From assembly GCA_023898665.1 (NCBI GenBank), contig CP060233.1:289833-353832 (forward strand): a stretch of 64,000 nt of DNA, written 5' to 3'. The DNA comes from Candidatus Nomurabacteria bacterium. Lineage in GTDB: Bacteria; Patescibacteriota; Saccharimonadia; Saccharimonadales; HK-STAS-PATE-42. Below are positions 11,465 to 13,810 of this stretch, in pieces. How positions within the stretch are numbered: the first letter of the stretch is position 1; every line of letters starts with the position of its first letter. Under the pieces are notes generated by a model that worked only from the letters and a program-made list of their open reading frames with translations, was not told the DNA's origin and did not search any database. Made by a program: the position numbers and the translations under genes.

Positions 11465-13810
11465 ATGGCAACACTCCAAGATTTTAGAAATGAGCGTTTA
11501 AGAAAACTAGCTGAGCTTAAAAAGCTAGGTGTTAATCCTTATCCTGCAAAAGCTAGTAGAACTAAAAAAAACAGTGAAGTAAAAGAAGATTTTAGTAATC
11601 TGGAAGGTAAGGTAGTCACTGTTGTTGGAAGAATCAAGAATATCCGTAAAATGGGTAAGATTGGCTTTATAGTCATAAAAGATGAGTTTGATTCTTTGCA
11701 ACTTTTTTTGGCTGAGGCAGAATTAGGAGTTCCAGATTATAATAATTCTGAACTTGGTTTTAGCGACGTGAGCTTACTTGATTCAGGAGATTTTATCGAA
11801 GCTTCTGGAGAGGTTATAAAAACTCAAACGGGCGAGATATCTATAAAAGTAAATAAGTTGAGAATTTTAACTAAATCTTTGAGGCCGATGCCACTGGCGC
11901 ATGAAGAGTTCAGCGATAAAGAACAGCGTTTAAGGAGAAGATATATTGATCTTAATGTTAACCAAGAAGTTCATGATAGATTTGTGCGTAGATCAAAATT
12001 CTGGGAAGCTACTCGCCAATTCTTACTTAAAGAAGGGTTCGTAGAGATTAATACTCCAATACTAGAGCACACAACTGGTGGTGCTGATGCTAATCCATTT
12101 GTGACTCACATGGATGCACTTGACCAAGACTTCTACTTAAGAATTTCTCATGAACTTCCTTTAAAAAGATTAATAGGCGGTGGTTTTGAAAAAGTTTTTG
12201 ATATTGGGCCAAGGTTCAGAAATGAAAACTACTCTGATGAGCACTTGCCCGAGCACATAGCAATGGAGTGGTATTGGGCTTACGCTGATTGGAATCAAGG
12301 TATGGATTTAACTCAGAGAATGATTAGATATATAGCTGATCAAACCTGGGGTACTAGAAAGTTTAAGTTAAATAATGGGCAAGAAGTGGATCTTGGAAAA
12401 GATGGTGAAGATTGGCCTAAAGTAAGTTTTGTAGGTCTCTTAAAAGAAAAATACAATTTAGATGTGCACTCTTGTACTCTAGAAGAGGCTGTTTCTAAAC
12501 TTAAGGAAGCTGGTGGTGAGGTAGAGAAGATTGAAAATAGATCTCGTGTAATTGATAAGCTTTGGAAGCTGGAGAGAGTTAAAATTTCTGGTCCTGCATT
12601 TTTGGTTGATGTGCCAGATTTTTTACAGCCATTAGCAAAAGTTAATTCCAGTGATGACAGATTGAGTGAGCAGTTTAATTTATTACTTGGTGGTACAGAG
12701 GCTTGTAAGGCTTATAGTGAGCTCAATGATCCTGTTGATCAGCTAGATAGATTCTTAAAACAACAGGAGATGCGTGATGCTGGCGATGATGAGGCGATGA
12801 TGCTTGATATCGATTTTGTGGAGATGCTCGAATATGGAATGCCGCCTGCTTGTGGATATGGCAATAGTGAGAGATTATTTTGGATGTTAGAAGGTGTTAC
12901 CGCCCGTGAAGGAGTAATCTTCCCGCAGTTAAGACAAGATATTGATGATATAACCAAAAAGATTTATCCAGATGTGAACTTCGTAGAAAAAACGCAAAGT
13001 AAAGAAGGAAAGAAGGGCCTAGAGCCAAAAAAAGGGGATAAACTCCCGGAGTCCGCGGATAAGCAAGGCACTTACAAGATTTATCTGAATGATTGGTCGG
13101 TTTTAACTTTTGAAGCAAAGGTAGAGAAGGTTAGTGAAGAGGATGGCGAGACGTTAGTTGTTTTAGATCAAACGGCTTTTTATCCAAACGGCGGAGGTCA
13201 GGCCTGTGACTTAGGTGAAATTGCTTTTGGCAATGGCTCCACTCTAAACTTAACTAAGGTTACTAAAGATAAAGACGGAGTTGTTTATCACCAAGGCAAA
13301 CTAGTCGGTGAAGTTCCGGCCGTTGGTGAAAAGGCTAGGGGGGTGATTGATGTTGAAAGAAGACTTTTGAACTCTCGATTACACTGTGCTGGACACTTTA
13401 TAGATTTAGCTGTCCGTAAGCTAAACAAAGGCTGGAAGCCAGGTAAAGGGGCGCATTATCCAGAGATGAGCTTCGTCGAATACGTTATTAAACCGTCAGA
13501 CGAAATTGAGGATAAAGAAGCTTTTGCAAGATTGTTAGAAGAAGAGCTGGACAAGATTATCTCTAAAGGAGGAAAAGTATCGGTAGAAATTATTCCGTCA
13601 AAAGAAGTAATTGAGAAGAAGATTAGTGATTATATACCTCAGGTAATCTTAGATTCTTATGAAAAAGTTCACGTGGTTAACTACCCTGATAATTTCAAGA
13701 TTTGTTGTGGCGGAACGCATGTTCAAGACATATCTGAAATAGGTAAGATAAAAATTACAAAAGTTAAGAAAAAAGACGGCAACATCCGTGTAAGCTATGA
13801 GCTATCGTAG
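11465..13810 (+). CDS. lysS: Lysyl-tRNA synthetase (class II) fused in frame to a C-terminal AlaX-like (tRNA_SAD) editing domain
   Basis: Residues 1-490 are a complete LysRS with OB fold and class II core. Residues 560-781 carry TAFYPNGGGQ, an HxxxH motif (HCAGH) and a CxxxH motif (CGGTH), the zinc-binding signature of AlaX and AlaRS/ThrRS editing domains. Confidence 0.85.
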   Translation: MATLQDFRNERLRKLAELKKLGVNPYPAKASRTKKNSEVKEDFSNLEGKVVTVVGRIKNIRKMGKIGFIVIKDEFDSLQLFLAEAELGVPDYNNSELGFSDVSLLDSGDFIEASGEVIKTQTGEISIKVNKLRILTKSLRPMPLAHEEFSDKEQRLRRRYIDLNVNQEVHDRFVRRSKFWEATRQFLLKEGFVEINTPILEHTTGGADANPFVTHMDALDQDFYLRISHELPLKRLIGGGFEKVFDIGPRFRNENYSDEHLPEHIAMEWYWAYADWNQGMDLTQRMIRYIADQTWGTRKFKLNNGQEVDLGKDGEDWPKVSFVGLLKEKYNLDVHSCTLEEAVSKLKEAGGEVEKIENRSRVIDKLWKLERVKISGPAFLVDVPDFLQPLAKVNSSDDRLSEQFNLLLGGTEACKAYSELNDPVDQLDRFLKQQEMRDAGDDEAMMLDIDFVEMLEYGMPPACGYGNSERLFWMLEGVTAREGVIFPQLRQDIDDITKKIYPDVNFVEKTQSKEGKKGLEPKKGDKLPESADKQGTYKIYLNDWSVLTFEAKVEKVSEEDGETLVVLDQTAFYPNGGGQACDLGEIAFGNGSTLNLTKVTKDKDGVVYHQGKLVGEVPAVGEKARGVIDVERRLLNSRLHCAGHFIDLAVRKLNKGWKPGKGAHYPEMSFVEYVIKPSDEIEDKEAFARLLEEELDKIISKGGKVSVEIIPSKEVIEKKISDYIPQVILDSYEKVHVVNYPDNFKICCGGTHVQDISEIGKIKITKVKKKDGNIRVSYELS

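Follow-up and report, generated by a model that had tools for sequence, protein, structure and literature searches.

A lysyl-tRNA synthetase fused in frame to an AlaX-type editing domain in Saccharimonadales

Of what benefit to a lysine enzyme is an attached deacylase for serine and glycine? The question is raised by a gene, lysS-alaX, located in a stretch of 64,000 nt of Candidatus Nomurabacteria bacterium DNA (assembly GCA_023898665.1, contig CP060233.1, positions 289,833 to 353,832 of the forward strand). This stretch is referred to as the window and its positions are counted from its first nucleotide. The gene is a genuine in-frame fusion of a class II lysyl-tRNA synthetase (LysRS) and an AlaX domain with an intact zinc and catalytic site. 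Both component families are known. The combination is undescribed in the literature searched on AlaX and LysRS of Saccharibacteria, on editing domains of aminoacyl-tRNA synthetases in Patescibacteria and on LysRS of the Candidate Phyla Radiation (CPR); the initial annotation of the window, made from the nucleotide sequence, had likewise been aware of no earlier description. The sequences as such are not new, only unrecognised: public databases already hold the fusion proteins as ‘lysine--tRNA ligase’ or ‘alanine--tRNA ligase-related protein’.

Architecture of the fused gene

The fused open reading frame (ORF) starts with ATG and comprises 781 aa in a single uninterrupted frame on the plus strand (11465-13810, stop codon at 13808-13810). 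It is supported by the ORF list, by Pfam and NCBIfam domains and by ~90 protein clusters of the same architecture. The initial annotation had described such a continuous frame with no sign of a frameshift merger, and this was borne out. GC content across the junction of both halves is smooth and shows no break.

Pfam assigns four domains to the protein, all of which exceed the gathering cut-offs. The LysRS half consists of an OB-fold anticodon-binding domain (residues 51-135, 11615-11869, plus strand; PF01336 tRNA_anti-codon, E 1.4e-14) and a class II (IIb) catalytic core (residues 152-488, 11918-12928, plus strand; PF00152 tRNA-synt_2, E 4.6e-60). The NCBIfam LysRS model PRK00484 matches residues 7-491 end to end with 476.1 bits (cut-off 468), while TIGR00499 scores 420.9 and thus slightly below its cut-off of 427.6. 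The NCBIfam LysX model matches the LysRS body as well. As it shares 60-75% identity with LysRS of other Saccharimonadales and its core residues are invariant, this half is expected to activate lysine and to charge tRNA(Lys).

The C-terminal half is composed of two parts, both on the plus strand. An N-terminal beta-barrel subdomain (residues 537-631, 13073-13357) is delimited by Pfam PF01411 (model positions 467-551/552, protein residues 547-631), NCBIfam AlaXM, the strands of an AlphaFold2 (AF2) model and Foldseek. It is followed by the editing core (residues 632-781, 13358-13807), which is supported by Pfam tRNA_SAD (736-775), an alignment to residues 497-733 of Archaeoglobus fulgidus AlaRS and Foldseek. 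The core runs to the C-terminus of the protein at residue 781, without a C-Ala/DHHA1 domain. The initial annotation had placed the appended domain at 13160-13810. The domain is indeed there and its tRNA_SAD and tRNA-synt_2c (547-631) matches lie above the gathering cut-offs, but it begins ~30 beta-barrel residues earlier, at nt 13073 (residue ~537).

The three motifs named at the outset were all located in the ORF. These are the glycine-rich editing-site motif TAFYPNGGGQ (residues 570-579, 13172-13201), the HxxxH zinc-binding motif HCAGH (residues 640-644, 13382-13396) and the CxxxH zinc-binding motif CGGTH (residues 748-752, 13706-13720), again on the plus strand. G576-Q579, H640, G643, H644 and C747-H752 are invariant in alignments of 91 and 33 fusion proteins and likewise in the split forms described below; Y573 is invariant too. 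In the extended stretch LDQT(570)AFYPNGGGQ the residues L, D, Q and T are at least 90% conserved. The conserved Thr570 ahead of GGGQ presumably has a role in serine recognition, as reported for structures of AlaX-S with serine. From the sequence we infer that the AlaX module is catalytically active.

The NCBIfam AlaXM model covers residues 537-780 nearly over its full length (profile positions 2-233 of 234, E 5e-36). In a phmmer search of the PDB with the C-terminal 281 aa as query, residues ~529-777 align with the A. fulgidus AlaRS editing domain at positions 497-733 (E 3e-21); further matches are AlaX-M of Pyrococcus horikoshii (2e1b) and the Clostridium perfringens protein 3kew. The structure of residues 530-781 was predicted with AF2 on the basis of 47 stand-alone AlaX homologues. 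The resulting model is of high confidence, with a predicted local distance difference test (pLDDT) of 95.9 and a predicted TM-score (pTM) of 0.91. Foldseek superposes it on 3kew, 9iuw and 2e1b, the latter being the Pyrococcus AlaX-M with which a comparison had been suggested, at target-normalised TM-scores of 0.83-0.86. AlaRS editing domains reach query-normalised values (TMq) of ~0.8. AlaX-S matches span the core alone (TMq 0.49) and ThrRS editing domains fit less well. Since barrel and core are both matched and no C-Ala is present, the domain is of the AlaX-M type.

Both halves are connected by a linker rich in Lys, Pro, Ser and Glu (residues 492-536, ~45 residues, 12938-13072, plus strand), which shows the lowest conservation of the protein, variable length and low pLDDT. 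Its C-terminal end forms a motif conserved in the clade, LPxSAxxxGT (LPESAxxxGT in the window), in which P528, S530, A531, G535 and T536 are invariant. The full-length AF2 model consists of two confident domains separated by residues ~486-524 (486-493 and 500-524) with a pLDDT below 50, at a pTM of 0.47. The linker is thus predicted to be a disordered, flexible tether, with no predicted docking between both halves.

Within the linker a run of seven A (13027-13033, plus strand) forms a zero-frame heptamer A_AAA_AAA (CCA AAA AAA GGG GAT AAA) at the Pro-Lys position whose homologue in relatives is the C_CCA_AAA_G site. Slipping by -1 here would reach a TAA two codons later (13039-13041), leading to LysRS alone with ~525 aa. 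The heptamer is not kept in the nearest relative (L003), and no significant RNA structure is found downstream of it (z -0.66). A dnaX-like frameshift at 13027-13033 was therefore rejected for the window, where the A run is probably incidental.

Recurrence and locus arrangements in relatives

Is the fusion a peculiarity of one assembly? A homologue search identified ~90 clusters (at the 90% identity level) with the same four-domain architecture and 53-83% identity; the extension of the window gene is hence shared by related lysS genes, a point which the initial annotation had left to be checked. The clusters are drawn from NCBI, JGI, ENA and Logan assemblies with contigs of up to 1.1 Mb, such as those of P0063 (1.1 Mb), P0041 (899 kb) and P0014 (247 kb), and the named ones are labelled Saccharimonadales, Saccharibacteria or Patescibacteria. 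GGGQ, HxxGH and CGGTH occur in these clusters without exception. One of them, P0002, is 100% identical to the window protein over residues 133-781. Moreover, an independent contig from a metagenome-assembled genome (L004, Ca. Saccharibacteria HKST-UBA49) shows 99.8% nucleotide identity to window positions 12038-13061, the A run at the junction included.

These data bear on the most trivial explanation, an artefact of assembly or sequencing that merged adjacent lysS and alaX genes by a lost stop codon or an indel. The A7 homopolymer at the junction (13027-13033), the different frames of lysS and alaX in some relatives and the mosaic nature of L004 could all be taken to point in this direction. 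However, the same in-frame architecture recurs in ~90 independent clusters from four data sources, P0002 and L004 match the window junction exactly, and the linker motif is conserved at the protein level. The artefact is thereby effectively refuted, and the lost-stop merger that the initial annotation had considered is countered by the ~90 in-frame clusters and by two assemblies which reproduce the junction.

The mosaic itself is seen when L004:1-4513 is compared to window positions 11450-13061. The 5’ third of lysS is ~70% identical at the nucleotide level, the 3’ part 99.8% from 12038 on. The L004 contig terminates inside the linker, and P0002 agrees with the window version. This pattern is due either to chimerism of the assembly or to recombination among strains that occur together.

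An exhaustive search of 1.84 billion cluster representatives revealed four more distant LysRS-AlaX fusions (P0356, P0364, P0368 and P0480). Their AlaX parts are 27-36% identical and all keep GGGQ, HxxxH and CGGTH. In neighbour-joining (NJ) trees of the LysRS and the AlaX parts, in-frame fusions cover most of the clade, with bare 506-aa LysRS, LysRS-DUF2000 forms and free alaX genes nested among them; these trees rest on a query-biased sample and their topology is indicative only. Across much of the Saccharimonadales (Saccharibacteria/TM7, CPR), lysS typically takes the form of this fusion, which is probably ancestral. A recent gene fusion, which had been offered as one explanation, was rejected: the fusion is old, as it spans most of the LysRS tree of the clade and extends to clusters with only 27-39% identity.

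The gene is part of a recurrent syntenic block of M50 peptidase, Rce1, ProRS, GreA and LysRS(-AlaX); alternative ARRANGEMENTS are seen in relatives. An in-frame lysS-alaX is found in the window and at the loci L003, L091 and L092. At five further loci (L001, L002, L006, L087 and L088) a lysS of 512-526 aa precedes an alaX that lies in a different frame, and L089 and L093 encode a LysRS with a homologous short tail and no alaX. A tail ending in ‘...SPKS*’ (P0249) was considered as a predictor of a -1 alaX but failed, with no alaX at L093 and L094. The ‘PK’ tail alone is thus not diagnostic of a downstream alaX. L090, in which alaX has its own ATG in the +1 frame at an A8 run, was set aside, as its lysS is itself broken and the contig is of low quality.

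Two further arrangements separate AlaX from class II LysRS entirely. At L005, greA is followed by an alaX with its own ATG and no lysS is present at the locus. In the P0129 contigs (Logan SRR26421362-70) a class I LysRS (PF01921) replaces the class II enzyme at the syntenic ProRS-GreA-LysRS position, and alaX is free-standing ~700 nt downstream of it. Upstream of this free alaX, and overlapping it, lies a 77-aa ORF, which may be what is left of the 3’ end of the former lysS. The AlaX proteins of L005 and of the P0129 contigs both nest within the fused clade in the NJ tree. Because these relatives keep a free-standing alaX after class II lysS was lost or replaced, AlaX does not depend on LysRS; the sequences favour a function of its own. 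The initial idea that the LysRS body acts as a tRNA-binding scaffold for the editing domain is weakened by these free alaX genes and by the disordered tether without predicted docking.

Neither alaS nor a second AlaX-like sequence nor a second LysRS is present in the 64-kb window, and no alaS was found in any Saccharibacterial locus examined. Additional scans were less productive. With the single C-terminal protein as query, genome contigs gave matches at 2 loci, the patterns being too specific. Metagenome contigs scanned with the clade alignment gave at least 80 loci, all of them generic AlaX of ~30% identity from other phyla and without information on the junction.

A candidate -1 frameshift in a subclade

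How are LysRS and AlaX related where both reside in different frames? In the split loci alaX lies in the -1 frame in all five cases, and in all five a heptamer C_CCA_AAA_G is located in the zero frame of lysS within the lysS/alaX overlap, 2-6 codons ahead of the lysS stop. These candidate sites are found at L001:7240-7300, L002:6939-7008, L006:4025-4097, L087:1571-1655 and L088:211-295. The same heptamer occupies the same Pro-Lys position in the in-frame counterparts L091:11533-11589 and L092:2022-2078. The junctions of L001, L006 and L092 centre on the slippery sequence CCCAAAAG. Across the PK|S junction of L001 the predicted trans-frame peptide reads SPK-SVTPAELPESAAEQGTR. C_CC.A_AA.A belongs to V_VV.A_AA.R, the most efficient class of bacterial -1 heptamers (PMC4066793).

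In four of the five split loci the -1 frame is open for just 15-48 nt upstream of the heptamer. It encodes the conserved linker and N-terminal motif P.SA...GT.KLYLD, ahead of which no ATG, GTG or TTG is found in four of five. Within this motif of 15 codons, 30, 14 and 79 substitutions among the loci affect the first, second and third positions of codons read in the alaX frame, where most of them are synonymous. In the other two frames they are non-synonymous; between L087 and L088, 6 synonymous and 0 non-synonymous changes are observed. The pattern therefore implies that the stretch is translated in the -1 frame, and on this sequence evidence the -1 frame upstream of any start codon is under purifying selection. 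The main alternative is that AlaX of the split loci is produced by non-canonical initiation or by termination-reinitiation instead of frameshifting.

The five split AlaX frames share 53-80% mutual identity, and all are intact with every catalytic motif. Sequencing error and recent decay are both unlikely because the split loci come from five different samples and pipelines. In L091 and L092, the nearest in-frame fusions with DNA examined, a -1 slip would lead to a stop ~8 codons further on and hence to LysRS alone. The controls without alaX encode the same Pro-Lys by non-slippery codons, namely CCC AAA (L089) and CCA AAG (L093). The heptamer is thus present in 7/7 loci with alaX downstream versus 0/2 controls. 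For comparison, 20% of the third positions of lysS are invariant among these loci, with 4/17 for Pro codons and 3/15 for Lys codons. From these background frequencies a rough joint probability of ~0.003 is obtained for the conservation of the heptamer; the statistics are post hoc, and the seven loci represent perhaps three or four independent lineages.

A hairpin is predicted ~7 nt downstream of the heptamer in 7/7 loci. In comparison to dinucleotide shuffles it is significant only in L001 (z -5.2), L092 (z -4.5) and L002 (z -2.2), and by the same measure no significant downstream hairpin is found in the controls L089 and L093 or in the window. The RNAalifold consensus is weak (-8.3 kcal/mol, one compensatory pair). 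Covariation support is not claimed, as the hairpins differ in register.

The arrangement resembles -1 frameshifting of the dnaX/IS3/IS911 type, with an X_XXY_YYZ heptamer and a predicted hairpin ~7 nt downstream in L001, L002, L006, L087, L088, L091 and L092. In dnaX a slip into a stop codon yields the shorter product, comparable to the in-frame relatives, whereas in insertion sequence transposases the slip yields the longer fusion, comparable to the split relatives. Unlike these systems, the site described here is a candidate predicted from sequence, and it concerns the gene of a synthetase together with that of a trans-editing factor. The window differs from this type, being in frame and without a convincing signal. 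For the subclade, we consider a functional -1 frameshift likely.

Possible function and significance

We consider it probable that the enzyme is bifunctional: tRNA(Lys) would be charged by LysRS, while the tethered AlaX-M deacylase would act in trans, with the LysRS dimer chiefly as a carrier. This reading builds on the identity and fold of the domains, the conserved zinc ligands and GGGQ, the recurrence of the fusion, the flexible linker and the independence of AlaX from class II LysRS, all of which are observed. LysRS would aminoacylate tRNA(Lys) as usual and independently of the AlaX module. The zinc-dependent module would hydrolyse mischarged tRNAs of the Ser- (and Gly-) tRNA(Ala) type in trans. 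As a dimeric and constitutively expressed protein, LysRS would ensure that both activities of this minimal genome are co-expressed at a fixed stoichiometry. Where the two halves lie in different frames, as in one subclade of the relatives, they would be joined by a -1 slip at C_CCA_AAA_G, such that LysRS alone and LysRS-AlaX are both made.

The following weighs against this reading. The AlaXM model (NF040865) scores only 124.5-127.9 bits compared to an equivalog cut-off of 300. The C-terminal domain is therefore a homologue of the same architecture and not an equivalog; by this sequence measure it is no orthologue of AlaX-M from archaea, whose specificity for substrates is hence not confidently transferable. 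Moreover, the link to LysRS persists, in some relatives by way of a candidate frameshift site. This suggests that the fusion as such is selected for, which a pure carrier model leaves unexplained.

Free AlaX-M proteins (P. horikoshii 2E1B, Pyrococcus furiosus 9IUW, C. perfringens 3KEW) share the fold of two subdomains, the zinc site, GGGQ and the lack of C-Ala with the window domain, which is 24-27% identical to them and differs in being covalently attached to LysRS. The editing domains of AlaRS (A. fulgidus 2ZTG/3WQY) and ThrRS (N2) are homologous domains on class II synthetases as well. These act in cis on the products of their own synthetase, whereas the host here is LysRS, for which no need for Ser/Gly editing is known. 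LysX of mycobacteria, a fusion of MprF and LysRS, also demonstrates that LysRS tolerates fusion to a second enzyme. In LysX this is an N-terminal lysyl-phosphatidylglycerol synthase which consumes Lys-tRNA(Lys) and is unrelated to AlaX.

In a curated overview from 2024, AlaX-type domains are recorded solely as stand-alone proteins or as parts of AlaRS and ThrRS (PMC11580382). Apicomplexan TrpRS is the only precedent we found in which a further synthetase bears an AlaX-like domain; there, too, a long linker connects an AlaX-type module with a synthetase of a different amino acid. That domain is AlaX-S-like and N-terminal, while the window domain is AlaX-M-like, C-terminal and fully conserved in its active site. 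In Plasmodium it has lost all zinc ligands and is an inactive aid to tRNA binding (PMC3680381). By analogy, the AlaX domain of LysRS could be a catalytically dead, tRNA-binding appendage, a view for which this precedent (PMC3680381) speaks as well as a relative of LysRS, P0340, with a plain tRNA_bind domain at the position of AlaX. We regard it as highly improbable: Plasmodium lost all four zinc ligands, but here all four and GGGQ are invariant in ~90 clusters and in the fusions of 27-36% identity.

The C-terminus of LysRS carries other domains as well. Among the 127 closest complete LysRS representatives (50% cluster level), 68 (54%) extend at least 100 aa past the LysRS body. The extensions scanned contain tRNA_bind, DUF2000, B3/4, B3/4+HD, HD, HAD+HD or AlaX. 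Appendages occur in P0087, P0089, P0092, P0093, P0259 and P0340-P0368, some with two in series; the distant appendage-rich proteins presumably belong to the CPR. Within the Saccharimonadales clade we found LysRS-DUF2000, LysRS-DUF2000-AlaX, LysRS-B3/4-AlaX and LysRS-NUDIX. DUF2000 matches Atu0240 (2gax) and, weakly, PTH2. In P0092, B3/4 separates LysRS from AlaX, and P0344 and P0346 carry it as a fusion to LysRS. The B3/4 part is closest to stand-alone B3/4 proteins including the canavanyl-tRNA deacylase CtdA (9f7e, E 1e-12) and thus represents a second type of trans-editing module on LysRS; its fold is unlike that of AlaX and it is absent from the window protein. By their matches, several of the appendages have folds of tRNA-ester hydrolases. 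LysRS is the main synthetase producing diadenosine tetraphosphate (Ap4A). The HD and NUDIX appendages suggest nucleotide hydrolases of the Ap4A type beside LysRS. No literature was found on C-terminal appendages of LysRS, DUF2000 included.

This context is relevant for a further explanation, namely that AlaX proofreads in cis or quasi-cis and clears tRNA(Lys) mischarged by LysRS with Ser, Ala, Thr or others. In vitro, LysRS of E. coli can attach several non-cognate amino acids to tRNA(Lys), and a lack of tRNA specificity has been reported for AlaX of the ancestral type. Class II LysRS itself lacks a domain for post-transfer editing and would in this way be supplied with an arrangement like that of ThrRS or AlaRS. 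The connection with LysRS is ancient and has been maintained despite differing frames, and other LysRS appendages of the clade are deacylase-like (CtdA-like B3/4; DUF2000 with its weak PTH2 match). In addition, a tether of ~45 residues could reach the acceptor end of a tRNA on either subunit of the dimer. On the other hand, a free alaX has been retained after the loss of class II lysS (L005) or its replacement by the unrelated class I LysRS (P0129 contigs), a bare LysRS of 506 aa is found in many close relatives, and the AF2 model contains no docked conformation. We thus judge cis proofreading to be quite unlikely.

As a sub-case of the bifunctional enzyme acting in trans, the AlaX module could compensate for an AlaRS that has lost its editing domain or activity, with the LysRS-borne domain as the sole editor of Ser-tRNA(Ala). 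CPR genomes are strongly reduced and the editing site of AlaX is very strictly conserved. The ProRS of the window lacks INS, which indicates that this lineage can do without editing domains or has moved them elsewhere. However, editing-proficient AlaRS and AlaX coexist in many bacteria, and we consider compensation unlikely.

As for the surroundings of the gene, the window ProRS (9434-10675) has 413 aa and no INS (tRNA_edit) editing domain. Related genomes encode either a short ProRS or a form of 534-569 aa containing INS at the same syntenic position. A link between the state of AlaX and the presence of INS across loci was considered and yielded no clean pattern. Directly after lysS-alaX (13950-15031) a 236-aa protein with TTG start, for which Pfam reports only HATPase_c and no sensor/DHp region, is followed by a 120-aa ORF without Pfam match. 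The two may represent a two-component pair that has degenerated. Within 17 kb, genes for four synthetases are clustered (proS, lysS-alaX, a glyQS-type GlyRS and serS). ORFs of at least 150 aa are nearly all on the plus strand in window positions 1-42600 and on the minus strand at 43300-55700. A single tRNA-Glu(CTC) is located at 55788-55862.

A broader and more tentative proposal, to which we give somewhat less than an even chance, is that in Saccharibacteria and CPR lineages close to them the C-terminus of LysRS is a modular docking point for hydrolases of translation quality control and related ones, namely AlaX, CtdA-like B3/4, DUF2000/PTH2-like, HD, NUDIX and tRNA_bind. LysRS-AlaX would then be a dedicated proofreading particle and no accidental fusion, and in the subclade the ratio of LysRS to LysRS-AlaX would be set by a conserved -1 frameshift acting both ways: a slip would generate the fusion in genomes with split genes and the truncated LysRS in genomes with in-frame genes. 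If true, this would be, to our knowledge, the first recoding event that links a synthetase to a trans-editing factor. It is a candidate for a new cellular programmed frameshift which comes with natural controls, as in-frame, -1 and alaX-less versions of one site exist.

Editing by AlaX, AlaRS and ThrRS has been understood either as cleanup by a synthetase of its own products or as the task of free trans-factors for tRNA(Ala). An intact AlaX domain on LysRS breaks this pairing, and it does so across a whole order of ultra-small episymbiotic bacteria. The fusions provide functional leads for DUF2000 and for the LysRS-HD and LysRS-NUDIX proteins. Moreover, they are a natural test case for the question of whether trans-editing factors benefit in their work from being tethered to a different synthetase.

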